DNA of 64,000 bases. It comes from Orbicella franksi. Its lineage: Eukaryota. The notes under the pieces were generated by a model. The model ran no database searches. It was not told where the DNA came from and saw only the letters and a program-made list of their open reading frames with translations. The stretch is from contig OZ116709.1 in NCBI GenBank assembly GCA_964199315.1, positions 2,480,001 through 2,544,000 on the forward strand, in the 5' to 3' direction. The translations under genes and the position numbers were made by a program. Shown here piece by piece: positions 15,855-41,400 of the stretch. Numbering within the stretch: the stretch's first letter is position 1; each line of letters starts with the position of its first letter.

Positions 15855-16847
15855 CTAAAAGCGTTTGCCGAGGACTCGGGCAAATGTGCGCTGTTCTCGA
15901 GCGCTGTCTGTTACTAGGCATACTCCTTTTCGTCTTCCTCTACATTGGTTTTTTGCTTCACAGTCCTCCTGTCTTCCCGGTCGGTTCTTCTTACTTCTTT
16001 TAAACTGGAGAGGTCTGTCGTTTAACGGCTGTATTGGTGGTAGTCTTGTTTCTCTCATATTCAATTCTTTGTGGCTACCTTGAGGCGAGTTGGCCTCATT
16101 TCGCTGCATGTATACATACAAGCTGCTGGTTCCACGGCATGTCTGGCGCCTCTCAATATTCTCTAGATCTTGGCAATGTCGTGAATAGCCCCGCGGAGCG
16201 TTCGCTCGGAGGCGCAGTAGATACTCCAAACTATTTGTGACATGGCGGAACGGATCATGGTGGTAGCGAGGACGGCTTTGCCTGTTCGCTTGACTATGTG
16301 AATAGCCCTGAGTATCCGCTTGGTTCTGGAAGTAGCCTTGACGCTGTTCGCTAACTACCCTTAGTGGAAAGCTTTTAGTGTTTTCCAGAACTCGATGCCT
16401 TATTTTCCTGAAACTTTCTCGTTCTTCTCTCTGTCGTTGACTTTTCAGTTCATCGTAGAATCTGGCGGCCTGAGGATTATTTGCCGAAACGTATCCATTT
16501 CTTACCTGGAACTGGCCGGCTAGGGTGTCACAATCCTCCTCCGAAGAACTCTCTGTATCAGAATCATAGCTGTCATGAAACACCAGACTCGAAAGAGTTT
16601 CAGCAGTGGAAAATCGCAGTTCGTTTCTGTTTCCAACATAGGGAAAGAACTTTTGCCTCATCTCCGGTGAAACGTTTGATTCGTAAACCTCAGCGGGATA
16701 GGCCTGTCCAGAGCGCAATCCCCTGAAAGCAGGACCCTTTTTCGATTCTAAACAGTCTCTCAGGTTGGAAGTGACCTTTTGATCTCTCCTCTTGTTGTGT
16801 CGATGACACAGCTCAAGTACTGATGGTGTTTCTCTTCGAACATTCAT
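15855..16847 (-). CDS. Uncharacterised intronless ~330-aa Arg/Gln/Ser-rich, probably disordered protein
   Basis: 993-bp open frame in AT-rich DNA, raised GC, first in-frame ATG at 16847 (AAGATG). Acidic patch DSYDSDTESSSEEDCD and basic C-terminus. An in-frame acceptor at 16877 may link to an upstream exon. Confidence 0.7.
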   Translation of the reverse strand: MNVRRETPSVLELCHRHNKRRDQKVTSNLRDCLESKKGPAFRGLRSGQAYPAEVYESNVSPEMRQKFFPYVGNRNELRFSTAETLSSLVFHDSYDSDTESSSEEDCDTLAGQFQVRNGYVSANNPQAARFYDELKSQRQREERESFRKIRHRVLENTKSFPLRVVSEQRQGYFQNQADTQGYSHSQANRQSRPRYHHDPFRHVTNSLEYLLRLRANAPRGYSRHCQDLENIERRQTCRGTSSLYVYMQRNEANSPQGSHKELNMRETRLPPIQPLNDRPLQFKRSKKNRPGRQEDCEAKNQCRGRRKGVCLVTDSAREQRTFARVLGKRF

Positions 16848-22038: not shown

Positions 22039-25000
22039 TTCATTTATACAGCGCACACATCCATTATTTGCCCAAGGTGCTTTACAAAATTATCCCTAAA
22101 ATCTACAATTTTACTCTAAGAAAATTGGAAACTAAAAAACTAGCAAAATACTGAAAAAAAACTAGAATCGAAAAAAAAATTAAAAGTATTATGAAGAGTT
22201 ACTCTTAATAAATTTAGTAAAAAGGAAGGTCTTGAGTTTTTTCTTAAATAATAAAACTGTACTGGATTGTCGTATTTCCAAAGGAACAGTGTTCCAGACC
22301 AAATCTTCGGAGCGCATATGGAAAAAGCTCTATCACCATATGTTCTGGTTTTACAAGTTGGCTGCATTAACAGGTCTTGAAAGTTCACGTGAAGAAACCT
22401 TGTTGATTTCCAACATTCCAGGAGTTCTGTTAGATATTGTGGGCAGAGACCATTCAATGTTTAAGGAGTGATGGAATGGTGTGCTAATAAGGCAATACTC
22501 TAAAGATATTACAAAGAATATTGCATTATGGGGCAGAAGGAGAGGGAATAAATTTAGGTATAAATACAAATTATTAGTACAATTTTTTTTTTCAGAAAGG
22601 TAGGGAAGTGAGATCTTCATTGTAGAAATGATAATAATTAATATATGTTGTTGGAACAAAAGATTTTTTAGGTAACTGTAGCTAAATTGTATTACAATGA
22701 ATTGGGCAAATTCTCAAATAGTAAATTTAAGTATCAGTTTACTAAAATTTCTGTCAGAAATGCAAATTTTCAATTTTTTTTATCACTGGCTAGAAAATTT
22801 AGTGGTCTTTCTTTTCAAAAAAGTTCGGAATGATAAGCTCTAAAGTGGTGTTAGAGATGCAGAGGATAAGCTATTTTTAACTTGTAATTACCACAGCGTG
22901 TTGACAAATTCCTGTCATCGCTGAGGAATTCATCCTCTGTCATGTGTACGTGTACATTGTTCAACAGATCCAGAGTTGACCAGAATTATTATCCTTTGTG
23001 CGATTGTGCTTCATTTCTCCGGTTCTTTAAAGTTGTCCATAGTTTCTTCATTTGACTATTTTGCTTGCTGTTTCTACATTCTGAATTTTTGATGTCTTCA
23101 AAGAAACAAACCATTGTGCCCTTTTGGGTTGGGAAAGAAGCTGAAATTGTGAGAGAACAAGCCATTTTCTGTTTCAAAGGTTGCCAATTTTGCTGCAAGT
23201 GATCACAGCGATGTGACCTAATTTTGTTAAGCATCTGCTCGCTTGAATTTTCTGCCGGACTTTCATGGCATAATCAGCTTGTTACAATTTGTTTTCTTGC
23301 AGTTTGATTTACGGTGATCTACGGCTGGTTCACGATATTCTTTGCATCTTTATAGCCATTTTGGCATTCAAATCACCAACTTTCCTGACTAAATTGAGTA
23401 CCGAACAAGAATCTCACTGCATGTCGCCATTTCTCATACCACCATAGTATACGTGAAGTTTTCCTAAAGTTTCTATAATTATTGTGATGTCTGTTAAATG
23501 CAGACTGTCATCAACACCATAGTTATGGTAAGCGGATCCTTGGACTCGTTTATCAGCACATGGTTAAATCCAACAGTTTGTGTGTCATCAATCACTTAGA
23601 ACAAACCAAGTTGGAAATTAAAGCTTTTTTTTCATCAGTGTATCTCAAAACCTTAAATTCCATACAGGAATGTACATTTTAAGTTCATTTACAGCCACCT
23701 TTCGACAGATTTAGCTGAAATTTGGCTGAAATGTTCTCACTCCAGATAGATGCTCTACAAGACTGTGTCTCCAATTAGTTAATTTTAGTCCGGTTTAAAA
23801 GTTATGGTTTTGTTTATCAAAGGATACCCCATGCATTCCAACGTTGTAGAATAGTATAAAAAGAAAACAAAGTGATCTTTCAGAAATTGGAGACACACGT
23901 TTGAAGGGCATTGTGTAATCAATCAATTCCAATATTGAGACGGTCAAATATATTTGAGGTATACTCTGATACTTTCAATTTAATTTACTTTTTACTTAAA
24001 AATTTTAAAAAAGTTTGATTCTCTGACTAATTCCCCACTATAGAAACATACCTTAACTTGCTTACTACCTACCGGATTCTTCTGTTCCTTTGTAGGCGTT
24101 TTGAAGTGCCTCGAACAATGAAAGTCTTATGTCACATAGTTGACTGGTGAGTTATATGTGAATGACAAAATGTATCTGTCAGTGACAGCAAAACATCTGG
24201 GCAAAAAGTTTCTTCAATAACACTCCCACAAAGAAAAAATGTAACGAGCTGTCAACATCATATCTTTCTGATTGATCTGACAATGTACTTGCCGACGTGG
24301 TGGCCAGTATGGCAATCAGAGGACAAACACAAACAAAGTATACTTGGATTCCTAACGTAAAGTCCATGCTTTCAACTACATACATTTATTGAAGCTCCCG
24401 CATGGGGGCTTTTCAGCCATAATGTAAAAAAATAGTCATGAATAACTCAGTGGTTAACTAATCTTGCAGTCTTAAGTTTTGAAATAGCATGTGACTGGAA
24501 ATTATCATTTATCAAGCTGACATTTTCATTCAGACTCACAAGACTATCACTTGCTCACTGGGCCATTGAACTTCTATTTTCACTTGCCCAAGAGCAAAAT
24601 TTACTTGCCTCAGGCAATCTAGCCTGCGAATACAGCCGCCTCTCATTCGCTCCCACTACTACGTGCGAAACGCGAGTATTCGCAGGCTACAGGCAATCGG
24701 ACCTGGGTTTTTTCCTGCCCTGTAATAGTTGTGTGGAAATTAAATGTTAATTTTCATATGTTTTTGGTAGGTTTTTAATCAGCCCAATACTTTTTAAGCA
24801 TTTGGATAAGAGAGGAATTCAGGTACTGATAACTTTTTTGGTACTGACAAATGTAAATTTAGCTGTTTGTTGTAGGATGATGAGTGTTTTCCAAAAAAAT
24901 ATATGTTAAAATATGCAGTCTTTAGTTTCAATAGCTGTAATACTTTCCTAAATAGTTGCCTGTTAATGTCACTCAGGTCGTATGAACTCTTTATTTTGGA

Positions 25001-25586
25001 GGTATGTAGTAACTACTTGTAAAACCTCTTACTATAAACTTCTTTTTTTTCTAAAATACCCCCCGTCTGTAATTTTGAAAAAAAAATGTAACTTGGGAAC
25101 AAATGAGCCCTTTTGGGAAAGCGGAGGTGGAGGTAGGTATATCATAACTCATACAGAACTTTACCTAGTGTTTTGCAAAGAAAATCAAATCAGCTACTGA
25201 CCAGACTTTTAGCCAAACTTATCAGTAACTCTGAGTTATGACATATTACAATAATGATGTAGAGTTACCTCTAATTATTAGAAATACATCTGCCTGCTGC
25301 AAAAAAATCATTCATTCAAACAGAATTGATGTTCTTGCATTGTTGTATGTACTGCAACAAATCTGACATGAATATATGTAACTTGTTTCTTGATCTACAG
25401 ACTTATCTTTGGGTGCTAAATGATGACAGTGAGTTTGACTTTGCCTTCAACAAGCTTAAGGTTGCTGGCGTTATGACAGACTATCCTACAAGACTGCAAA
25501 ATTATCTTAATGGTAGCAATATCCCTCGAGAGCCTGTAAACACTACCAGTGGAAGTGAAAGGAGTGAGCTGATTAAAAAAGAGTGA
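17680..25586 (+). CDS. GDPD1: Lysophospholipase D / glycerophosphodiester phosphodiesterase, GDPD1/GDPD3 family (332 aa, 11 exons)
   Basis: Exons 17680-17815, 19560-19602, 20149-20209, 20557-20631, 20962-21007, 21123-21247, 21353-21442, 21686-21819, 24096-24146, 24771-24822, 25401-25586 total 999 nt with no internal stop. Motifs: N-terminal TM helix, ISHRGG-AAENLENT, EMLELDV, VVCHD, INVDIK, second hydrophobic segment LLFYTGLLPF, WVLND...GVMTDYPT. Confidence 0.93.
19683..20085. mobile_element. ~400-bp MITE-like element in GDPD1 intron 2
   Basis: Degenerate terminal inverted repeats GGGGGGTACTC ... GAGTAC(TGTG)CCCCCC. A similar right end (GGGAGTACCCCC) occurs at ~29430-29441. Confidence 0.5.
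21937..22460 (-). mobile_element. Degenerate L2/CR1-type LINE 3' fragment with (ATT/ATC)n tail
   Basis: Minus-strand translation NGLCPQYLTELL...TRTYGDRAFSICAPKIW resembles the C-terminus of L2/CR1 ORF2. It is followed by the AAT/GAT microsatellite at 21937-22040. Confidence 0.75.
22985..23560 (-). mobile_element. Possible highly degraded LINE endonuclease (APE) remnant
   Basis: Minus-strand fragment VGDLNAK resembles the APE GD(F/L)NA motif; many stops. Confidence 0.25.
24620..24689. mobile_element. 70-bp MITE with perfect 14-bp TIRs and 9-bp TSD, nested in an older repeat
   Basis: TIRs TAGCCTGCGAATAC / GTATTCGCAGGCTA; identical flanks CAGGCAATC at 24611-24619 and 24690-24698. Confidence 0.9.
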
Positions 25587-27770
25587 CAGATTAGTCTTCT
25601 CCTGCCGAGTGCAAACTGAAAGCACTCATGGCAGCAACAATGATAGTGCACCAGTTATAGAGCTGGAAGTTTCTTTTTAGTTTTTTTTTAAAAACTAGAC
25701 TCATTAAGTGTCATATTTTAGTGAAACATCGTACTGTTTAGTGTGTATTTTCATTCAGGGTTCTCTTTAATTTAGGGAATAGAGGGCTTGATTCATAAGT
25801 AGACAGCTGACCCTAATAGTTTTTGAGTGCCCAAGGGACAAGCCTCTCAGGAGGTTTGGGGTCATCTTCCCCCAGAACATTTTGAAATTTAGATGCTCTG
25901 AAATGCTATTTTACGCATTCTTTTATAGATATTTCCTAAAAAGAAAATCAATTTTGGAAAAGTTCAAAATGCCAACAAAATCAAGGGATTACAAAGAATT
26001 CAACCTTTTTCATACAGTGCTAGCATAATTGAAAATGTGCAAGACACCCTGATCCCATGCCCCTTCTCTAGCTACAGCCTTGATTGTCCTGAGACAAGGA
26101 CAGTCAAGGTTCAGTCACATTCCAAACAACCTGTATTTTCCCTAAATTACTCTTTACAACTTACATACATATTATTTCACGAATAGTGGGTGGCTCAGAA
26201 ATTGAAGTAGCTGGCTTTTCAGCCATCAGCCGGCACTTAATGAAAACCCTGATCCATTTGAGTGCAAAAAGCAGTTCTTCGAAGTAACATAATTACACAA
26301 TCTGTTATAGAGCATCAGGTATGAATCAAGCTCAAAATTGTCAAGTAGCTTGGTATCCAGGCACTCCAGTTCATTCCTAGACCTTTGTAAACAGCGTCAA
26401 TAACCAAACAAAGCACATCTATATTGTAATGTAGGTAATTAGTATTATGTTAGCAAAAATAGTTCATACAATGTATCACTGTTTTTGCAAGGTGATAAAC
26501 ATGTTGTATTCAATATTTAATTTATGTCCAACTGTAGAATATTTCCTTGTTTTAAAGATATAGCATGTCAAAAATCATGAAAATCACGATCAGACTGTGT
26601 ACTGGCTATCAAAGGATTACCTACCTTTTGATTGAAAAGTGACTGATGATATCAAATTTTATTTCCTATTTTGTTCACTTTCTGTGATTATATTTACTTC
26701 CACTGATTGTTTATGTTTGGGTCACAACCAGATGGCATGGAATCCAGACCTCTGACCAATGTCGATGTATTTAGTTTTTAGCGCAAGACAGTTTGCTATT
26801 ACAGTACCAAAGGTGTAATATCTTCATAAGCTCAACAATAATATTAGAATTAGAAATATTTATTATTAGAGACAATTACTGTAATTTCCGGTAGTATCCA
26901 CCCATTTTCACACTGTTCAGGTTTTAATCATGAACTTTTCTTCCAAAAATGTAATGGAAATAAATAGAAACTGATTTATTAAATAATGTATCTACATATA
27001 TTAGTAGTGCATTCCAACCATAGCATTGAAAAACAAATTGATTTCATTGTATTTGTGATTCCTTCAACGAAAAAGTCTATAATTCTGTAAATATTAAATA
27101 TTTTTGTTAGTGTAAAGTTCATGTCTGCAATAAGAATTCTTTCTTTCAAGTAAATTAAACCAAAACCACAAAACACTTAAGACTGCTGCACCCCAGTGGT
27201 GTGGAAAACATACCCTTCCCTAAAGAGATTTCATATTTTTTGTTACCAGTGATGATTTTCCCAATGTCGTTTTAATCAGATTGATTATTATAAGAAAAAG
27301 TAATTACCTCTTCTTTAGCCATGGCTATGAGAAGCAACCTCGCATATTTTCTGAAAATGCAAGGAGCAAATGGCTCTTTTCTCAGGAAATAACCTGAAAT
27401 CCTGGAGCAATATTTTCTGCTCACTGAAAGGTCTCAAGTTCAGTATATTTACACTTTAGTAGTGACATTTGTGATAAATCCTATTAGATTGCCGATTTCT
27501 TATTGCCTTATCACAAATGACTCAAACACTCTGTAAATTGTCACATCATGTAACCAAGCTGTAGTTAACATCTCTGCTAAAAGCTAAACGTAACTCCACA
27601 ATCAAAATTCTAATCCCCAAATCCCCTAAACAAAGGACCAGGGCATGAAACAATGAAGAGATAGGGGGAGGGGGACAGGCAGTATGAATGTTTTCTACAC
27701 TGTATAATGATTGACAGTCATTTGAAAATGGGTAAACAAATGTTTCACCAGAAGAACACCCGGAATAAGT

Positions 27771-28856
27771 TTATTCTGTAGTTCCCTGTGTTTCTGTATC
27801 GTTCGTAGCTTTATCTTCTTCCATTACAATCTTCTTCACTTGGCCCTCATCTGTGTCCTGGCAATTGACTGGGTCTTCAGCCTCGGCCACCTGTTCATGC
27901 TCTCGCTTCCTCGGTGAAGAATGGCCATACAGTGCCTGTTTACTCATCGTCATGGCGTCCAGTAATTCTGTGACAAACTCAGCAAGGTCGATTGTCACTT
28001 CTTCCCAAAGCTCTTCATCAAAATCAATACACGATTCTTTGTTTTCTCCTTTCAACCTCTCCAGTAAGACACCCTTGGATTTGTTGCGGATGAACAAGTA
28101 GGTTTGGAGCTGAATGTAATCATATTCAGGACACATGAAGCGATTCTTTCGATTCTTTACTTCAATCACACTATCTTCTGTTTCTGCATCCACCTTGCCA
28201 CATACACTCCACTGTACACCATTGTATTCCATGTCCCTGTAGTACAACTCGGGTGCGATGGGGCGTTCGATCTCAATCCCTTTGGCTTTTCCGAAATCTA
28301 GAACAGCTTTGCCTTCCAACTGCGTTCCGCGATCCTTCGTGATTTTGGACTCAACTGCCTCTACGACCTCCTTCTTTTCGATTCTGGCCTTGGCACAAAT
28401 CTCTTTCACAACCGATTCCACGGGTTTTTCTTCGTTCTGACAAAGTGTCTTGACCTCGGCTGCAACCTGTTCGACCACTTTAGCTGCTACTAGTGCTTGG
28501 TCTTCTTTGCTGCTTCTAAAGAGTTTCACTTTCAGGAAATTCAACGTTTTCCAATAAATTTTTCTCAGTGAAATGTCGCAAATTATTTTTCTTAGTTCTG
28601 CACCGAAATCGACGAGATCGGATTCTTCTGTCAAAGATGGAAGCTGCAATTCTTCACATTCTGTCAACATGGAGTGAACTTCAGTTTTGAACTGCAAGGC
28701 ATAGGCAAAACAAAACGATTGTGGATGTGATCGAAGCCAAACTCGTTGGAAGGTTTCTTCTCTGGATTGATATCTATGCCGTCCAACAGCACTGGCTAAT
28801 TCACTTGCAAAAATAACAATTTTTCTTCTCGCGTAATCGCTTGCCTTGCCCGCCAT
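27771..28856 (-). CDS. Intronless lambda-exonuclease/YqaJ-like PD-(D/E)xK nuclease, 361 aa
   Basis: Ordered motifs match lambda exonuclease: RKIVIFASE (lambda RLGVITASE), RGTQLE (G...E), GKVD (catalytic D), IEVKNR (ExK), YDYIQLQTY (Y..Q.Q). Strong start context AAAAACATGG. Acidic tail containing SPRKR. Confidence 0.8.
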   Translation of the reverse strand: MAGKASDYARRKIVIFASELASAVGRHRYQSREETFQRVWLRSHPQSFCFAYALQFKTEVHSMLTECEELQLPSLTEESDLVDFGAELRKIICDISLRKIYWKTLNFLKVKLFRSSKEDQALVAAKVVEQVAAEVKTLCQNEEKPVESVVKEICAKARIEKKEVVEAVESKITKDRGTQLEGKAVLDFGKAKGIEIERPIAPELYYRDMEYNGVQWSVCGKVDAETEDSVIEVKNRKNRFMCPEYDYIQLQTYLFIRNKSKGVLLERLKGENKESCIDFDEELWEEVTIDLAEFVTELLDAMTMSKQALYGHSSPRKREHEQVAEAEDPVNCQDTDEGQVKKIVMEEDKATNDTETQGTTE

Positions 28857-28894: not shown

Positions 28895-28930
28895 CACTTC
28901 CGGTTTTTATAACGGGGAGAGCGCGGGAAA
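28895..28930 (-). promoter_or_regulatory. ETS (CCGGAAGTG) and E2F-like (TTTCCCGCGC) motifs just upstream of the nuclease ATG
   Basis: Plus-strand CACTTCCGG at 28895-28903 and GCGCGGGAAA at 28921-28930, 39-74 bp upstream of the start codon. Confidence 0.5.
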
Positions 28931-31225
28931 AAATTGCTTTACTAGGGAGGGGTAGTGATAAGTATGGTTAATTAACCTGGAAACATATTTGTGAGAGCAA
29001 ATTTACAAAAATATGATACCGTATTTTGAAAGGTGATTTACAAGTCTCACTATCAAAAGATATTAATTTTATGTATTCAGTGGGGATAAATCGGTTTATT
29101 GTCTGGTTCATCTCTCCCTACCCTAGTCAGTAGAATATTTCAATGTTCCGGTCGCTCGGGCAAGTCTGAACATGTCACGCTGACAAGTCTACACGAACCA
29201 CAACATCTCATGACGTCATCGCGATTCATATGGGTAGGCATGATGTTTTTTTTATGTACCGCACTAGAGAGCCTGAAAACCAGCGTGGAAAGCAAGTACT
29301 GGCAAAACATCGGAAACCATTCAGTGGATGAAAACAAGAAATGCATAGGGTAGGGAAAATCGCAGATTTTGGTCATAAATAGGGTAAGGGATTTGGGAAA
29401 CGCGCCGCACGCCCCCATCCAATTTTTCTGGGAGTACCCCCGAGCATCTGAAACATACTTTGCTTATCAAGGCGATTGATTATCTGTACTGAACAAACAA
29501 TTAAGTGCATTTTTTACGGTAACTGCATAAATTCTCGCGTGCTCATATTGGCTAATTTTCTTTGTCAATAAGCGGACAGACACATGAATGTATAATTTGT
29601 GCGATGCGTCAACGAGCGAGAGCGGACAATTTGCTATCGTCGGGTTTGACAATTTATTATCTGCGATCCATTCGGCTATCGCCTCGTGGATCCGCATCTA
29701 CTTTGACAACGTTGTGACGAAATTCATGATCAATAAGAGGACAGACGCATGAAAAACTGACTTCAATTTGTTAAATTGTGTTGAAAAATTGTAAACAGAT
29801 ATAAATTTAGCTCCTCTTCTACGTGACGAGGATATAAACTTTGGTGGTTCTTTACTCTGGGATATTTCAAACTGATGACATCATGTGAAAACACTCTCGA
29901 CTACATAACTACAAAGCCTTTAGTGTGACATGACATAATGAGACGAAAGTAAGCGGGCGAACATATCACTCCAAAGCACGCGCGCGCAAACTTAGACGAT
30001 TATGACGAGACGTGATGCAATGAATTGACAGAAGCTAACTTGAGACAGAAGTGTAACAGCTCTTGTAAGCTTGTAATTCTCTTCATTGTTAGCAGCTGTT
30101 ATTGTTTTAGGGCTAGGGGCATTGTTTCTGTTGTTTGTTCTCAGAGGGGAACAAGCCATTCATGCGAGACCTTACGACAGCTGCTACATCACCCACTTGA
30201 GAACGTTCACTGTCGGCATATAACTGTCACTGTTTTTAATAGCAGGCTTACTTACAATTGATTGAGTGAGATAAGCTTTACTGAGACAAGTGAAACAGAT
30301 GACAAAAACGGAGGTAACGTTATGAGCTTTAATTTCATCTTTTAATTTAATTTTCAGCCACTAAGTTTAGTTCCTAATGGCCCTATTCTCCCAGAGGAGA
30401 GCTAGGAATTAGTAGTAAGTTTGGTTCCTAATCACCAGAACATGTTTGCAGATAAACTGGCGAAGAGCAATAACTCATTCTCATTATGTAGCTTAGACTA
30501 TGTAGGACTATGTAGCGTTCTCTGGTCTGATTGGATTGCCTTATGGCCCGGGTTTGGACAACATAATAGAAATTTTATAAACAGTAAACTTCTGTAAACG
30601 AGCTGGTTTTTAGGAATAAGTAATCTGAGAAAGAAAGAAACGTTGAAAAAATATGTCCGCAAATTTACAAAAAAAAAAATAATATGTAAAAAAAAAATTC
30701 AGTCAGACCAATAGGGTTAAACAAACCGTTGGCCTTGGGACAAGTGCAAGCTGCAAATTCTGTTGGTTATGAAACAATCAAAAGCGAGCTGATGATTTTT
30801 GCGGGAACTTTTTCTTTGAAAGTTTTTGCGGTTAATGGCGAAAACGTTGCGATAGAGCGGTAATTTTTCTCATTACAATTACCTTTCTGTATGACCCGAC
30901 TTCCAAGCACCACTTAATTTATGAATCAATCGGATGCGAGTGGATAACTCGAGCGAGTTTCTTGGATAAATTCCTATCGCTCGAATAACAAATTCAATGT
31001 TCAACCCTAAATTCGACACTTTCTATGAAAATCTGTCGATTTCTGCCGCCAAATCTGGTTATTAATCATTCTGCATACTCAAACTGTGGTCTGTGATTGC
31101 TGACTGAGCAACATGTGGTTCAGTAAGAAAGCGACAAAACTTATCTTACGCTCACGTGAAAGCTTGGGCATGCGCCGAACCAAAAAACACTGGACAAAGG
31201 TTTCATGTTTCGAGTTTTGATTGGC

Positions 31226-33902
31226 TCATCGCGTCTCTCGTGACACCATGTTCATTTCTGGGCAAGGGAGAACCCATTTAAAAGCCATCTGGTGTAGAAG
31301 TCCTGTCGCATTACATCGCAAGCATTTCCACGCATGCGACAAACTTCCGCTGGCATAAAATCCTTCCAGACGCAGATCTTTTTCTGCCAGGGACGTAAAG
31401 AGCCGACAATCCGGGATATCTTCATCTGGGACAATGAAATCGACCAATGGGAGATCAGGTCCTATATAATACTCAAGTCTTTCTCCTTTCTCATCCACGC
31501 AGAAGAATTGATGGTTTTGGTAGTTTTCCTTCTCGTCGCAAAGTGAACTGTAACTTTTGCAGACACTTGCACTGAGCTTGTAATCATTTTGCGAAGCGTA
31601 TCGCGTCACTGTAAGGGCGCAGTCACGACCAATTGAGAATTTTACAAATTGGCGATACTTTTGCTGTGCTGTTTCTAGAAGGATGTGTTTCCAGTGAAGA
31701 TACCGTTCAGTGAAGTCTCTCGTCTGTTCTTCTATTATTACATATGGAACAACAGAAGGGTAGCGTTCGAGCCGACGGATAAGTTTCTCTAACCTGAAGT
31801 ATTGCGCTTCGCGGTACACATATAACGCAACAGAAGTTTGAGGAAGCAGTGACGCATCCCGCAAGTAGTTTAAGATATAGCCAAAGTATGTTCCGTCACG
31901 GTCAATGAAATATCTTCCTTCATTATCCACCTCTAGCTTGTGTCGCCCACTAAACATGGCTGCCAACATGGAATCTTCGTCCTTCAGAAGTGTTGAAAGG
32001 CGAGTGGTAAAGAAATGACCTCCAACATTAAGAGAAAGAATAGTCGGGAGCTACGAAAAATTTGCCAAGAAGAAACTTTGATCAGAAGAAATTATGAAGA
32101 AAGATTCACACCTCTCAAACTGAAGTAATTATCAGCGATTCACCATTTTGTAGAAAGATCCTGTGCTATACAAACGCGTAACACTCTTTTCTTTCAGAAG
32201 GTGACCTAAACAGTTTCCGAGAGACTTGACGAGTTGTGAACCTCAAAAGGTCGTAACTATTTATAAAACGTCAGTTACCCTGGTCTTTAACCAATTATGA
32301 ATTTGTTAAATTAAAACCTTACGGAAATGAAGTTTCTCCATTAGTTAACCATTCTTTCTTAATTCTTTACTCAGTTCCACAAATGCAACCCATTACTGGT
32401 GATCATAATCATGAATCAAACAAAATCTTCCGCTAAAAACATAAAAGTCACCACCAGTTTAATAGGATTTTCCACCTCGCATATGGAATATGAAAGGGCT
32501 CCGAACAAGAGCCAGATAATATAAATGGTGGACGCGGAAGTTTACAAGCTTAGACGTTGGTTTTAATTTAATTTTTGTCACCAGCATCCAGTATCTAAGT
32601 GTACAGTGACATACATTATAATTACCGGTAATTTTGGACAAAAGAAAGCTGATTCAACCGGATGACCCAAGTCGTAAATTGAACACTGCATTGGCTCCGA
32701 GAGGACAAATATTTTTTTAATCAGAAGATAATCTAACATTGACCAATGCACGTCGTTGCGGCATTTTAACGAAATTTTTCTGTGTTTTCCAGGAACATAG
32801 TAAGGAGGTGTTGTCATTAAAACAGCTACATGAGTTTTCCTTTTTGATTTTATACTTCCCGGCGGCAAACCTTGTCCTGCGGCTTGAAAGTAGAAATTCG
32901 TACTAGATGACACTAAGCCAGAAACTAACCAAACAAATCTCTAAAACTACACGAATTTCACTGAAAAGCTAGGAACAAATTTGAAAACTCCCCTGCAAAA
33001 ATGGAGATTCCTTTGTATCGTATCTCTTGGGCAATGTCAAAACCTGCTATACTGTTATTACTGTTATTAAACTTTTTTGGTTGACGTTTTTTAGTCAAAC
33101 GGTTCGATCAATTTAGAAATTTGTAGTTTTGGAATATTGTCTTGTTGTTTACGTATTTACACCTGCTCGTTATATGGAACAAAGCATTTGGCACTGAAAA
33201 TGTGTCATACACGATCTAAAGTGAGAAGTCAATGACTGGAGTCTTCGGCTTTAACTATGCAGTGCAATTGCTAAGATCTGTATGACGAACTGAGTTGTGG
33301 CCGCTATAGGAAAAATTTTTCTGGCCTTCAAATTGTTTATGACAATGGTCGTTTAAGTTGAGTCAAGATTACCATAAAGATCAAACATCACTTTCCTCGA
33401 TAACAATAAGGAAAGTTTCCCGGAAATCAGTGGTCTTGAAAGCACAGTGGACTGACATCATCGAAATATCACTCCTTTTGTAAAATAGAGAACTGAAAAG
33501 TTTTAAGCTTATTCTCGCGAATTTCATCATGCAACAATCTACTGCTGCAGTATAAAACAATTTATAGGTCTTCTGCTGCCGCGTAGCTCGACCGTATCAA
33601 TTTCATTTAATGCGAAAAAATATGAAATGGCATGTGCACATTTAGGTTATATATAAATTTACTGGCTAACGGGTCTCTTTTAGCAATATATAAAGTGCAC
33701 GTTCGAAAGAAGTTTTTGAAATACCATTGATAGCTTCAGAATCCTTAAAATGAAACCGAAATTTAAACGTGTACGTTCAAGTAAAAATCTGAATTCACTT
33801 GCAAACTGAGGAAACATGACTTCCTTCAACCCACGTTCCTGGCGTAGATTAATTTAAATAACAAGTTAATCTTGTATATCATACCGTCACTTTTTCTGCC
33901 AT
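31226..33902 (-). CDS. KCTD-family BTB/POZ (T1) protein, KCTD7/14-like, ~280 aa
   Basis: Main exon 32050-31226 (acceptor TTTTTCGTAG): LPTILSLNVGGHFFTTRLSTLLKDEDSMLAAMFSGRH...RYFIDRDGTYFGYILNYLRD, a classic KCTD BTB. Candidate first exon 33902-33885 AAAATGGCAGAAAAAGTGACG|GTATGA (MAEKVT) is phase-compatible but less certain. Confidence 0.88.
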
Positions 33903-35468: not shown

Positions 35469-38400
35469 TCACCACGAGCTGAAATCTTTAAACCCACCAG
35501 AAGTTTTTATTTTCTTTTTTGTTGGCTGCGGTGTGAAGTCAGCAGTATCGGCATCCCTAAGAAACGTTAAACCAGAAAATTAATTGCAAGGAAAAACGTC
35601 GAGAAAAATTGAATGCCGCTTAAAAACTAGAATCAGATAAATGATTAAGATTTTTCAGATCAAGCTCAAACAAAATTCCTCATTAATTAAAGGTTTCCAT
35701 GCATTTCTCCTGATACAAGTGTAAGAATTAAGCTTTGCACGTACGGAGGTAAATCCCCTTGTTGATAATTTTCTTTTTTCTCATCACCCTTCTGCTTGAC
35801 AGTGTATGGATATTGTAAGGAGACATTCTATGCTGATAGTTCTTGAGAAATACATTATTAAGCTATATATTTTATGATACCTGGATGCTGGTTTCTGTGG
35901 AATATATTTTCCAACTCCTGAGCGGTAAACCTTGGGTGCTTCTGCTGGTGTAGCAGCTGCTTTCTTTTTCCTGGCGGCTTCTTCCTGTTCACGTACACAC
36001 AAGTAATAGAACATTTCAGATCAACTGTAACCTGAGCCTGCGGTGTTGCTTACGTAACATGGCGCGTCCTGTTGGCGCTACGATGACTACGTAGCAACAA
36101 TCAGAACCCTCGAGATCGCTCGTGACTGCTCGTACTCCCTTTAAGTTTGATTGAATAATAAGAACGGAAAAATCTTGACGTGTTTCTACGAGATTCACTG
36201 ACTAGGGTTTTGCAGAGATTGATAACAGGAACAAAGATGCGAAGGTACAAGGCTATTAATCCTATCTTTGCATTACAGTGATTAAACACACTTGCAGAAG
36301 TAATGGACCTCAGCTGACGAGGATAACCTGGGAGGTGATCGGGTACATTACCTGTCGCTTTTCCTCTTCTTCCTTTTTCTCGCGTTCTTCTTTAAGCTGA
36401 AAACAAATTTAAGTTGGTGTCAAACTCACAAAAAAACAACAGCCTACCAATGGAAAATGAAAGGATGATGACTCGTATCCGTCTCTGTCACGTTACTGAC
36501 ACGTTAGCTAGTCATCATGGACAATCATCTGGCTCTTCACTGTATTTGTATATAACTCGTGCGCATCGCTGTATCTTGTCACGGAATCTTTCTCCTCAGT
36601 GACGGAAGGATTGTGTGACGAGCTATGCGAACGTAGGGGACTACATACAAATTCTCCGTACCTGTCGTTATACGTTACTTACAGCCTTAGATTAGAGAAT
36701 ATGTTAATATATCCAGAAAATATTGCCCTTGTGATCGATTGTCTTATTCTCCTGACCTAGATGGCTCTTTTTCATATAAATTTTTAAGAGAGTTAAGATG
36801 TTGATCACCGCTGGGTCAACTTACAACGGCGTCCACTTCATCAAAAGGATTCACGAACACCACAGCCTTGATCAACTTGATCGTTTCCTGATGGGAGACA
36901 GTTAAATGAAAAAAATATTCACCCAATTGAACACAAAATAGAATTTGACCCAGATTAAATGAAATCCAAAACGGGAATGACATCGGAACTCAACTGGTAA
37001 AAAGAGAGAAACAAATGACCAACAGCTATATCGTCACATTCTGCGATGTGAAGATCACTTCAGTTCGAATGAAACGTCAAAATCACAGTGTAAACTCCCT
37101 CGGTATAACATTTAATTTCTTTGCTTTTAACCCATTGTTTGATCTTCATTGTCAACCTCTTCATTCTTGGCCTACTCATAAGACAGCTGCGGAAAATTCC
37201 GGCCATTCTTTACCCACAGGGTGGTGGAGAAGGTTTACCCACAAGTGTTTATGAGAACTTTGTATAAGGAAAACTGGAGTCTCTAAAGTTTTCACTCACC
37301 GCGAAAATGGACTTAATTTAATGATCTGCCCCACAATTGAATAGATGTATTCGATAAAGTAATACCTTAGGTCGATCTTTTTCGTCGGTTTCGACTTTTT
37401 CCATAGCGCTAAGTGTTTCAAGCCCACCAACTAACCTGGCAAAACAGACACAACGATAAAACTCCAGTCACGTCTGTGAACATGCGAACATTTATAAAAA
37501 CCAAATAGCTACGACTATAGTACTACAAAATGTACAAGAGTCGCGCGTTATCTCTAGATTTACCCTACAGTACCTTGTACTGCGGAAATTCAGAAACTTT
37601 ATCCAAGAGGGAAAGGAAAATTACTTGAGAGTCATTTAAAAAAAGAAAGTCGTTCAACAAGCTTTCCTTACTGGATAATAAACTTAAGGTAATTCCTCTG
37701 AAATAAAAGTGACAATAGATTTTTGTTCAAACTTTGTCCACTGAATATTTGTCATATGATAACTTCAATTTTGAAATAAAAAGGGGGGGGGGTGCCCATG
37801 CTCATTAAGGAGCAGTGAGGCATTGAAAATACCCCATTTTGGCATTATTTAATGCTTATTATAAGAACGCATTCCCAGTAATTGTAAAATCTTTGTGAAC
37901 CCAGACTCATAAGAACATGCATTAAACTGCAGTCAATACATTGTGTCGGACACAAATAAACATTTTAAGTTTGATTCAGGCAGAAAGTTAAATCCTTGGT
38001 TAAAAATTTGAACCAAATTTCTTGACGTGGTTACCGACTGCAAAATAGAAAAGACCACAGTGTATCTGCTATTTTTCTTATTTATTCAATTTTCAGCAAT
38101 AGAAATTAGATCACTCTTTTCTCACGCAAAGCTTATGATTAGTTGATTACAATGACTGGAAAAAAAAATTGGGGTGCCCGTGCTCGTTGGTGAGCTAGAG
38201 CCATTTTTCAACTGACGGAGCTCAATATCAAGGCAAATCCGTCATGTTTTCAATATGCGCGTGCACGAGCGCGCGCTAATGACGCCATAAATTATGCGCA
38301 GTAAGGATGCGCAATGCAAATGTGAGGAATGACCTTAAAGCCCAATACATTTTAAAAGCTTTTAAAGGTCTCTAAACGAAAAGAAAAGAAAAAAAGTCTC

Positions 38401-41400
38401 GAGAGTGTTACCTGCCAAACACGGAATGCTTTTCATCCAAGTGCCGACAAGAACGATACGTTATGAAGCTACAAGGAAAACAAAAGGCGGAATGAACAGT
38501 ACTACAGAATGAACAAGGGAGGGGAGGGTTAGGCAAAAGGGCCTACCGACCCTGCCTGACCCTTCCTGAAAACATACATTGAATAATTGCCATTGTTTAG
38601 ATTCTACATATCTCTACCATTTCTCGCAGTTTCCAAAAGAAGTAACTGAGTAATACGTGAATAATTTTTCCCCCTTGATTGCTATTTGCAGAAAATGTTT
38701 TTGTTTCGTTTCCTGAGAAACGAAACGACCAGCAGTCGTCCGACAGACGACCGACGGACAACCGACAGACAACCGTCAGACGACCGACAGATGACCGACA
38801 GATGACCGACAGTATCTTGTAGGAGCTGCTCTTCACTATTGCCCATAAACGTTGACAGTTCAGCACTAAAAACATAATATTGACAAGTAAGTGTGAATAG
38901 AGTTCCATCACTCACAACTGTGATTTGTTGGTATTGGGTCCTGAATTTGCCATACTCAAAATTCCTCTGCCTGAAAAATACAAGACAAAAATGGTTTGAA
39001 TGCGGTAACTGTGGGACTGCAAACCTTTGTTAGTCTCAACAATAAATTGACGAAGTGCAAAAATATTGTGTTCAGAACATTCAGTATGTGCAAATAATAG
39101 AAAAAAATAAAAAAATAAATAGAAATAGAAAACATGTACCGTCTTTCTATCGAGTTTTAGTATAAACCTACAAGCGTTCTATCGCGAGCGCCTTTCTCTG
39201 ATTGGCTTCGTATTCTGTCATAGATAGTGAGTTCCGTAGCAGTGTACCCTTGTTAACAAAATGACGGCCGCTTCTTGGCGTTTTCGAAGTGTCCGTGAAG
39301 AGGATTTAGATAAAGTTTTGAACTACCAGTAATTGAAGATTTATACTAATACAGTGACATTATTCGCTCTCGATTTCTATGCGTGATAGTTGACGAGGGT
39401 GCGGCGATAGAAATCTCGAGCTCATAATCTAATTGTTTAATAGAGGCACGATTCTAAACCAATCAGAGCGCGTATTTTCCTTGAGCTATTTTCTACTTAC
39501 TATTACTGTACAATAGAGATGCAATGTACATGTACAACGGAGGAAAAAACAAAGATGCTACACGTCTACAAGATAAAAAAGTGCCTTTATTCATCCTTCT
39601 CACCTTGATGTATTAAATTCGGTTTGAACTCGTCCTTAAAGGCCTCGCCCCACGTCGATTCCCCTCCTGTAAAGAAGGCAAATAAACAGCTCGTTAAATG
39701 CGAAACACACACACAAACTAAAAACCTGTATTATGTACAAACATCTTTGCTCTCCTGTTTGACCAATTTAAGTCTGCGAGGTATAACTCCCTTAGTTTTG
39801 TTTTCCAGTCTGTTCCACAATCAGAATCCCCCCAAAGTTATTAACCTCCCCTGTTCCTGATTAAATAGGCCTCTCAACTGAACAAACCCCTAACTCCTTT
39901 GAAACTATGAAAGTAAAACGTAAGATTTTTATAACAATCTCCTTGGGCTGAGTGTGTGTCATTTTCACAATTTAACCCACAAACGTATAATTTATTTATT
40001 TTATTCTCGTTTGAATGACAGTGATGTTTGGTAAATCACGCCAATTGAGAAGAAAAAAGGTTTACATTTTACTGCAGCTGAGGAAACAAGGAAGATTTGC
40101 TTTTAATTAAAAATTTACCTTGCCCAGTTCCAGTAGGATCCCCTCCTTGAATCTGAAACAAACACATACAAGTACCAAGAAATTTAGAATACGCTCTTGG
40201 TTTGATTTGATTTGAAACATCAGAAACCATATTCATTACATGCTTAGAAATACAACAACAAAAAGGCTGCGTTTTTGCTCAAGAATAAATCAGATAAGTA
40301 AGTTAATAATGTAACAGCCTTCACACATACCATAAAATTTCTTATAGATCTGTGAAAAACTAACAAGAAAATAAAAAAAAAAACATATTGGTTAGGTGTG
40401 TAATTTAAACTTAACTAATACCGTCAATTTCACGTCAAGAAAGAAGAAACCGCTTTCTTGTCTATTTACTTACTTGTATTATCGTAATAGCCTTCACTAC
40501 AAAGCTTCATAAAATTCTCGCATGTTTTTGGTACCTAAAAAATATGATGAAACTGGTCTCAAATCTTCCACATATATGCATGTACCAGAAGAAATAAGGT
40601 GCAGTCCCAACAATATATATATTACAGCCCATGGAAGGTCACTGGAAATTCTGAGGAGGTGGGGATCTTAAAAGCCAACAATTTTATTCAGGAAAGTATG
40701 AAGCTGAACTGGAATTTCCAGGGGGAGAGAGGTTCAAACCAAAAACCTTCTAATTAACAATTACATTATGAGCTTGAGATTTCTATCGCATGATAGTTGA
40801 GGAGGGCGCACCTCAAGTAAACTATCACACATAAATGTGGAGAGCAAATTATCTGTTATAATTGTTTTAGTGTAAATCTACCAGACATTCAAAACTCTAT
40901 CTAAATCCTCTTCACATGAGAATGCAAAGTAATGGCCACCATTTTGTTAACAACTGCATACTGCTAGGCTACTCACTGTCAACAACAGAACATCTAGTGT
41001 GTGCAGTGTAGCCAATCAAAGTACTGCATTCATGATAGAACACTAGTAGATTTATACTAAAAGGGGAGATAGATATATTGAGCTTCAGTTGTACCCTTGG
41101 TACAATTTAGTATTTTCCTTTGTTCTGGTGTCAACAGTAGAACACCATTAATCCAGTCACCCCAGACTGGTCACCAACGCATCACAAAATCTGGCTGTAT
41201 TAAGCGGGTGGCCATATTAAAGGGGTTCTTGAAATAAGAAAATGACTTCTCAGGACTGAGCTTTTGTTCAGGCCACAATAAAGTGACACTAACAACGAGG
41301 TGGCTTATGGGCTGGCCGTAAGGCAGGGTTCCACTGTAGTAATACAACATATGAATTATATAAAACAAAGGAAAATACCAAAAATTGTTCCAAGGGTGAA

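Follow-up and report, generated by a model that had tools for sequence, protein, structure and literature searches.

What is an intact, single-exon gene for a viral-type nuclease doing between ordinary host genes in the stony coral Orbicella franksi, and how did it get there? An earlier note on the window, by which we mean the whole 64,000-nucleotide stretch of DNA analysed, had read the gene as a lambda-exonuclease/YqaJ enzyme captured from a giant virus or from a transposon and since domesticated. In our working model a giant virus was the source of the gene, which was captured prior to the divergence of stony corals from anemones, and the gene product would now serve as a Mg2+-dependent exonuclease acting in the S-phase nucleus on 5' ends of DNA. 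The model is tentative, and we would give slightly less than even weight to all of its parts holding together. The parts differ considerably in strength and are taken up separately below.

The gene and its surroundings

The open reading frame occupies positions 27771 to 28856 on the minus strand and specifies a 361-aa nuclease of the PD-(D/E)xK class, from a divergent YqaJ-like family of giant-virus type. It is unbroken and begins with an ATG in good context, so the intact 1086-bp single-exon frame described earlier stands. By eye, the Orbicella faveolata protein XP_020604398.1 differs from the window protein at one residue. Only one match to the ORF was found in the coral's own genome (G000, 497 Mb), at the window's locus. 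The gene had been called solitary, which is true of its own subfamily and not of YqaJ sequences overall, as the same genome holds at least 145 canonical YqaJ matches, the candidate not being among them.

The flanks are ordinary host genes, as had been proposed. Downstream lies the last exon and 3' UTR of a convergent GDPD-family gene (25398..26902, plus strand), whose last exon matches at E 2e-5, just short of the Pfam cut-off, and upstream lies the main coding exon of a BTB/KCTD gene (31226..32050, minus strand). The AATAAA of the GDPD gene at 26959 (plus strand) adjoins that of the nuclease gene at 26975, and the 3' UTR of the latter would extend over 26975..27770 on the minus strand, with an RNA contig beginning at 27061 and with its strand and exact end presumptive. 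High-copy interspersed repeats (29115..30238, no strand assigned) sit between the promoter and KCTD, outside the gene; DNA depth over them is 44,000-242,000 versus 120-149 in most single-copy bins. Between 25500 and 33000 the gene is not bracketed by any terminal repeat that is long or of high identity; short matches were all that was found there, in agreement with the earlier statement that such repeats are absent.

Less weight can be given to the contrast drawn earlier between a single-exon gene and its spliced neighbours. The intronless state is weak evidence at this locus because the KCTD neighbour also has a single coding exon, of 274 codons, and the ORF at 15855-16847 is a single frame of 330 aa. 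A mixed cluster from Pocillopora hinted at a fusion of the nuclease with KCTD, which we consider a probable gene-model artefact: a search for a longer homologue found none (weak evidence in itself), no RNA joint connects the two genes among the 15 of 18 joints listed, and RNA depth drops to about zero directly upstream of the nuclease ATG.

A nuclease with the lambda-exonuclease fold

Searches of Pfam, NCBIfam and PDB sequences with the window protein gave no nuclease match and therefore profiles and structure were needed to identify it. A family profile built from 150 rows matches Cas4 SSO0001 (E 5e-4) and LHK-Exo (E 2e-3). The AlphaFold2 model (pLDDT 88, below 60 from residue 311 on) matched LHK-Exo in VIA with a Z of 14.0 (rmsd 2.9, 171 aligned) and lambda exonuclease with a Z of 12.0 (3.2, 167); further matches were to HS_1420 (Z 13.0), mimivirus R354 (11.6), Cas4 SSO0001 (10.6) and human EXO5 (10.0), with weaker ones to EBV alkaline nuclease (9.0), MGME1 (8.8) and DXO/Rai1 (5.7-6.4). 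Foldseek agrees with these results. Taken together, profile, Foldseek and VIA bear out the earlier assignment to the PD-(D/E)xK nucleases with a lambda-exonuclease fold (Z 14), and the catalytic D...ExK of that class, on its alpha/beta core, is present as D223, E232 and K234 in 150/150 rows. Among the 150 relatives, 99 match the lambda-exonuclease model TIGR03033 and 80 match the YqaJ model PF09588, weakly in both cases; the window protein matches neither.

The weaker fold matches are what would favor an RNA 5'-end enzyme resembling DXO/Rai1, or a dual DNase/RNase like the herpesvirus alkaline nuclease. Such an activity would also be consistent with the remodelled 5'-end pocket described below and with the position of some viral relatives near mRNA-related genes, namely a triphosphatase (L025) and a DEAD/DSHCT helicase (L120, L137). 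However, the top fold matches are all DNA exonucleases, as is the TIGR03033 model matched by 99 of the 150 members, and we regard an RNA enzyme as quite improbable.

The motifs follow one another in the order previously claimed, all on the minus strand. Motif I, R11-KIVIFAS-E19 (28800..28826), includes S18, the equivalent of lambda S35. After the helical insert (28374..28724) come G177-x3-E181 (28314..28328), invariant in 150/150 rows and with E181 as the presumed counterpart of lambda E85; G220-K-V-D223 (28188..28199), with the metal-binding Asp that corresponds to lambda D119 and with K or R in 147/150 rows at the place of lambda S117; E232-V-K234-N-R236 (28149..28163), with the catalytic ExK, in which K234 corresponds to lambda K131, and a family-invariant Arg; and the Y245-x3-Q249-x3-Y253 helix (28098..28124), with Q249 as the presumed counterpart of lambda Q157. 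Residues G177, E181, G220, D223, E232, K234, R236, Q249 and Y253 are invariant in the 150-protein alignment.

Likeness to lambda exonuclease, LHK-Exo and YqaJ thus covers fold (Z 12-14) and motif order. It does not extend to the whole of the 5'-phosphate pocket, which in lambda exonuclease is formed by R28, S35, S117 and Q157, with W24 (passages of PMC3239189 and PMC7496540). In the coral protein K221 takes the place of S117; W24 is absent, with D7 at its place, and many family members start too late to have a Trp24 at all. The structural alignment starts at model residue 12 (lambda 29, LHK-Exo 13), which puts R11 in register with lambda R28 and LHK-Exo R12, and the position is poorly kept in the family, with Arg in 14/26 animal-clade rows and 11/124 other rows. 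The coral protein further differs in its insert and in an acidic tail bearing an SPRKR motif, and its gene is flanked by GDPD and KCTD with no annealase gene adjoining. Because S18 and Q249 are kept, the R28 position is poorly kept across the family, and the S117 and W24 positions are changed, a lambda-type exonuclease action is likely, although by a non-canonical member; with the pocket remodelled and no match to Pfam YqaJ, the canonical lambda-exonuclease/YqaJ identity proposed earlier has to be given up.

The insert, residues 45-161, forms seven helices in the model (residues 45-156). The distance from S18 to E181 is 163 aa as compared with 50 between S35 and E85 of lambda exonuclease, so the insert amounts to about 113 aa; the earlier description of a helical insert following the first motif was correct in kind and place but not in its size of about 130 aa. 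In members outside animals, 87-261 residues (median 118) separate the S18 column from that of G177, and judged from the alignment an insert of varying length is a family trait, common to viral and protist members. Folded alone the insert reached a pLDDT of only 52, and the matches of AMPK_alpha_AID and DUF2240 to it, both below cut-off, were dismissed as matches of helix composition. A trimer prediction (residues 8-312, three copies, alignment not used) scored 0.00 and carries no weight either way.

Cas4 (SSO0001), EXO5 and MGME1 have in common with the coral protein the nuclease core and the G-[KR]-x-D form of motif II, and the Exaiptasia homologue has been automatically named 'Cas4'. Cas4 proteins, however, have four conserved Cys that hold an Fe-S cluster, whereas no Cys is invariant or near-invariant in the coral family, and the coral gene has no CRISPR context. 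We conclude from the lack of conserved Cys that the protein is not a Cas4.

A second YqaJ-like family of giant viruses

A first search found 38 proteins, with identities of 39-100% for 36, and a profile search extended this to 2,280 relatives at E<=1e-3. Named members from stony corals come from Orbicella, Oculina, Desmophyllum and Pocillopora, and those from anemones come from Exaiptasia, Actinostola and Nematostella; among the 30 proteins looked up, and with the best 150 of the 2,280 relatives listed, all named animal members are hexacorals. The remaining 'animal-clade' rows were assigned to that clade by similarity and tree position.

Outside animals the family is largely viral. The top Atlas clusters are 84-100% viral with Nucleocytoviricota commonest, full-length structural matches in BFVD include an iridovirus protein (A0A068QKG1, E 6e-12) and an entomopoxvirus protein (A0A916P1H1, E 4e-11), and the genes adjoining relatives on contigs include those for the NCLDV major capsid protein, Erv1/Alr, TBP, PCNA or VLTF3. 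A single scan of viral sequence yielded 174 viral stretches with the family; scans of viral contigs with the coral alignment and with P0093 gave no match, nor did phage records, and no prokaryote genome matched in one scan run with a single viral-type pattern set. Cellular members also exist outside animals: Phytophthora infestans carries one, further unnamed proteins are probably from protists, and contig L022 (51% GC) has a family member adjoining a kelch-repeat gene. The view in the earlier note that relatives occur in giant viruses and protists is therefore confirmed by Atlas, BFVD, contig neighbours and Phytophthora infestans.

On the combined evidence of sequences and models, the coral protein belongs to a second, divergent YqaJ-like family that is common in giant viruses and has been uncharacterised. 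With other members it shares FASE, GxxxE, G[KR][IV]D, ExKNR, YxxxQxxxY and the helical insert, and its membership in the tree is supported at 100/99; it differs in that its gene is part of an animal chromosome and has a host-type promoter, and in having a longer insert and a tail found in animals only. The 'RecB-like nuclease' family of early comparative work on NCLDV may be this same family.

The canonical YqaJ recombinase of giant viruses (NCVOG1192; mimivirus R354) has its fold in common with the coral protein (Z 11.6 for R354) and comes from the same virus phylum (PMC3493329, the retrieved passages of which treat canonical NCLDV YqaJ only). Contigs L018 and L021 each carry both a gene of the coral-type family and a canonical YqaJ within 5 kb, the latter scoring only 22-28 bits on the family profile. 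Since both occur side by side on these contigs, the coral-type family is a second paralogue beside the canonical giant-virus YqaJ.

Origin of the gene

Two trees bear on the origin. In the first (78 rows, 173 columns, LG+C20; bootstrap not fully settled) the animal clade was supported at 99/91, the same clade together with P0093 and the giant-virus-contig protein L039 at 99/92, and animals stood apart from the protist-like clade. In the second (56 rows: 33 outgroup, long or redundant rows were removed and 11 viral rows newly included) support for the animal clade was 98/94. The split of animals plus P0093 plus the 11 viral rows from the rest reached only 89/85 in this tree. The backbone has weak support, from 173 columns at about 25-30% identity. 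P0093, the closest outsider in the trees, and most non-animal rows carry no taxon label.

The nearest tree neighbours of the coral gene are thus viral, and we consider it probable from these sequences that the gene was captured from a giant virus (Nucleocytoviricota), likely before the split between stony corals and anemones. The principal alternative is an old eukaryotic nuclease family that descended vertically and was lost in most animals, with giant viruses acquiring it repeatedly from their hosts. This scenario gains from the cellular members outside animals (Phytophthora infestans and L022) and from the precedent that hexacorals retain other ancient repair genes lost elsewhere, such as MSH1 (PMC8438181). 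It also gains from AU tests, in which a joint clade of animals and protist-like rows was not rejected (p 0.071, and p 0.17 for a wider clade with unlabelled rows), and by reason of these two tests vertical descent with many losses keeps a place among the explanations. In contrast, a tighter test joining animals with a 7-row stramenopile-type clade was rejected (p-AU 0.0007), the unconstrained trees place viral lineages between the animal and protist-like rows, the named animal members among the matches listed are all hexacorals, and the viral diversity of the family far exceeds the cellular diversity seen. The tested groups were chosen after the trees had been seen, and 'protist-like' is our own assignment for all rows except P0095. 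On balance we give vertical descent a minor but appreciable share of the probability. The capture proposed in the earlier note is therefore likely in its direction and unproven, with shared eukaryotic ancestry only partly rejected.

The other source that had been suggested, a resident DNA transposon, is very improbable. ISL2EU transposons encode a YqaJ ORF (PMC4482050, in part), and the coral genome holds the at least 145 YqaJ matches mentioned above. The 8 readable copies among 12 genomic YqaJ copies fetched, however, scored no more than 22.7 bits on the family profile, as compared with 116-254 bits for 11 proteins of the family encoded on metagenome and viral contigs, and a phmmer comparison of the candidate with the 8 copies gave no match. 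The genomic copies fall outside the family at 100/99 in the 78-row tree, and a joint clade of animals with host transposon-type YqaJ (3 copies) was rejected at p-AU 0.016. With the gene present in one copy and no bracketing repeats in addition, we reject capture from an ISL2EU-type element. We likewise set aside a recent endogenous giant-virus element on the strength of the host flanks, host-like GC3 and purifying selection. An NCLDV capsid search of G000 gave no match, and control genomes likewise gave none.

A conserved host gene

The gene is a conserved host gene: it is single-copy, transcribed, under purifying selection and set between host flanks. The GDPD 3' UTR, the ORF and KCTD lie together on an independent contig, L002 (6,919 bp, 98.6%), and DNA depth over the ORF is 142 as compared with 120-149 in single-copy flanks (run X15, with genome-like coverage). 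L006 and L007 (71-72% protein identity) likewise have KCTD upstream, and L004 and L009 have sequence matching the GDPD 3' UTR downstream. L003 and L005 match only over 1.3-1.6 kb around the gene, and no KCTD was found upstream within 3.4 and 6.6 kb, respectively.

In polyA RNA (run X8) an unspliced contig covers 27061-28628 at a depth of 18, compared with 37-41 over the GDPD 3' UTR and 0 in the GDPD intron bin 24900-25180 and in 32206-33300. Raw RNA reads cover the ORF at about 1.5-6x in X24 and almost not at all in X22, and the RNA contigs are a sign of presence, neither of level nor of strand.

Nei-Gojobori dN/dS between the window and L003-L007 is 0.12-0.27 for the whole gene, 0.056-0.142 for the core (residues 161-310) in 5/5 unsaturated comparisons with the window, and 0.35-0.82 for the tail in 4 comparisons; values against L008 were saturated, and L003 versus L005, with 5 differences, was uninformative. 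GC3 is 0.446 compared with 0.431 for KCTD. Single copy, polyA RNA, core dN/dS and synteny in several corals are all in keeping with the host-gene status previously proposed.

Promoter and C-terminal tail

Two features that are new here may reflect adaptation to the host. One is a conserved core promoter on the minus strand (28896..28930), made up of an E2F-like TTTCCCGCGC (28921-28930), the TATA element TATAAAAA (28904-28911) and an ETS-like CCGGAAGT (28896-28903). The compound motif, TTTCCCGCGC...TATAAAWA.CGGAAG, lies upstream of the ATG in the window and in L002, L003, L004, L006 and L007; in L005 its last part is interrupted by a 2-base gap, and L008 is without it. It persists at dS up to 1.3, and the 100 nt upstream align better than the 100 nt downstream in 4/4 comparisons and exceed all 200 shuffles. 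In mammals, S-phase genes carry TTSSCGC as their E2F motif (PMC5716687, in part). Since TTTSSCGC alone occurs in the window at chance frequency (3 found, 4.2 expected), the case for E2F rests on conservation.

The other feature is S314-P-R-K-R318 (27903..27917, minus strand), an animal-clade motif at the start of a low-confidence and likely disordered tail that is overall only weakly constrained. The pattern [S/T]P-x0-2-[KR][KR] follows the core in 36/44 animal-clade proteins as compared with 1/121 others; P0031 and P0092 are without it, and 6 further proteins have it in altered form. We read SPRKR as a predicted CDK site overlapping a putative nuclear localisation signal, which would fit the consensus. 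Together, the tail motif and the E2F-like/TATA/ETS-like promoter are likely signs of domestication, as far as sequence can indicate.

The tail also bears on the possibility that the enzyme works in mitochondria, like MGME1 or yeast EXO5, and keeps hexacoral mtDNA slow-evolving. In the coral protein motif I is preceded by just 12 residues, one Asp among them, and the conserved basic tail resembles a nuclear signal, and we therefore think a mitochondrial role improbable, despite the fold matches to MGME1 (Z 8.8) and EXO5 (Z 10.0), the Arg-rich, acid-poor N-terminal extensions of several protist-like members, and the enhanced repair of anthozoan mtDNA described in PMC8438181.

Proposed function

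Judging from the model, the coral protein is very probably an active nuclease, and it is probably, with somewhat less assurance, a 5'->3' DNA exonuclease. D223 and E232 would bind Mg2+, helped by K234 and E181 in the manner of lambda exonuclease, and the 5' DNA end would be held by S18, Q249 and the basic K221 and R236, the last two standing in for the R28/S117 pocket of lambda exonuclease. The helical insert may clamp the DNA strand. A nuclear role in S phase, for which promoter and tail sequences are our guide, has in our estimate an even chance of being right: cycling cells would express the gene more strongly through its E2F-type promoter, and nuclear import, under CDK control, would be directed by the SPRKR tail. 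There the enzyme might remove nucleotides 5'->3' at breaks, flaps and replication intermediates and so back up host enzymes of the EXO1/DNA2/EXO5 type.

An antiviral role or a multi-gene 'system', raised in the earlier note, found no supporting evidence at what is a single gene. Captured viral genes are often redirected against viruses, and a gene of viral origin might be used in host defence by degrading linear viral or cytosolic DNA ends. The related mimivirus R354 has been described as belonging to a virophage-resistance system (PMC6137704). However, a gene kept in one copy, under strong purifying selection and with stable neighbours is unlike the fast-evolving, expanding genes of defence, and promoter and tail look cell-cycle-linked. 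We consider a defensive use unlikely, and favor DNA end-processing in the nucleus.

Meaning of the finding

The gene is apparently undescribed so far. No published description turned up among titles and the opening lines of abstracts, in a search with most subscription journals outside its scope. Table 1 of PMC4878875 reports 41 anthozoan transfers, with no listed source viral and three rows unnamed proteins, and the coral nuclease is not recognisable among them. The subfamily is not mentioned under the terms searched in the accessible parts of PMC3424549 and PMC1189080, and bioRxiv 10.1101/2025.04.19.649669 is a survey of viral regions in eukaryote genomes that might include this locus.

The closest precedent found is octocoral mtMutS, likewise an anthozoan DNA-maintenance gene from a giant virus that has been retained (PMC8438181, in part). 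It is a different enzyme from another subclass and is mitochondrially encoded, whereas the coral nuclease gene is nuclear and found in hexacorals. There are few documented cases in which a single giant-virus enzyme was captured into the core DNA metabolism of an animal and kept in lasting function; mtMutS is the main anthozoan case found and the coral nuclease would be the second.

A broader and more doubtful proposal can be put forward on this basis. In hexacorals, part of the nuclear DNA end-processing of S phase may fall to a giant-virus nuclease that has acquired an E2F promoter together with a nuclear signal gated by CDK. Both anthozoan subclasses would then have independently taken DNA-maintenance enzymes (mtMutS and this nuclease) from giant viruses, and stramenopiles might separately have co-opted the same viral family for mitochondria. 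Corals are exposed to UV and oxidative stress, and transfer is known to have added DNA-repair genes to them. Reef corals have the gene, as do two laboratory anemones, Nematostella and Exaiptasia, in which it is open to knock-out and tagging. It also gives access to a nuclease family that has been uncharacterised, counts more than 2,000 cluster representatives and has its 5'-end pocket remodelled.

Genomic neighbourhood of the nuclease gene

Polyadenylation signals of the nuclease gene and of the convergent GDPD gene (AATAAA at 26975 on the minus strand and at 26959 on the plus strand, respectively) lie side by side within 26959-26980 and, therefore, the 3' ends of the two genes may overlap. 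At 27770, the stop codon of the nuclease is itself overlapped by another AATAAA. Elsewhere in the window, a 330-aa single-frame ORF (15855-16847, minus strand) gave no Pfam match, and upstream of the KCTD gene are exons of a cyclophilin-type gene (37318-39730, minus strand; weak Pro_isomerase match, E 0.002).

With regard to upstream synteny, the Pocillopora 90% cluster of homologue P0023 is a mixture of nuclease and KCTD21-like proteins. Mixing of both protein types in one cluster implies that, somewhere, the two genes were fused in a gene model or joined by read-through, and hence that the nuclease and KCTD genes are neighbours in Pocillopora. No KCTD match was found in the upstream flanks of two near-identical loci, L003 (1-3050) and L005 (1-6300), and thus the lineage of these loci may have lost the synteny on the upstream side; the L005 flank contains collagen-like frames.

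Homologues of the nuclease and canonical YqaJ genes

In anemones, the Nematostella gene model (P0094) ends prematurely at the catalytic ExK motif. The Actinostola protein (P0092) is far more divergent than that of Exaiptasia and does not have the C-terminal tail motif, raising the possibility that anemones have a second paralogue. The closest outsider to the hexacoral clade, P0093, comes from a 12.6-kb Logan contig; its insert is long and the SPRKR tail is absent. Scanning viral contigs with P0093 gave no match. Two readings of P0093 are an orthologue from a basal cnidarian and a virus resembling the donor.

Canonical YqaJ domains number at least 145 genome-wide in the O. franksi assembly, and many form identical-score groups spread over different contigs, which suggests that YqaJ-bearing transposons have been recently active in this genome. 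Canonical YqaJ and the nuclease family co-occur on giant-virus-type contigs L018 (829-5571) and L021 (1857-7022), where DHFR and Erv1/Alr genes lie near the paired YqaJ-type genes. Adjoining the nuclease are a P2X-receptor-like ORF (E 5e-10) in a giant-virus MAG (L023, 3319-4713) and an intein-containing ribonucleotide reductase large subunit gene on a viral contig (L025, 6500-9958).

Eight protist-like family members (P0037, P0100, P0101, P0108, P0115, P0119, P0129 and P0188) have Arg-rich, acid-poor N-terminal extensions that, judged by composition, look like mitochondrial presequences. Possibly, the family was co-opted separately in this group to serve as a nuclease for mtDNA.
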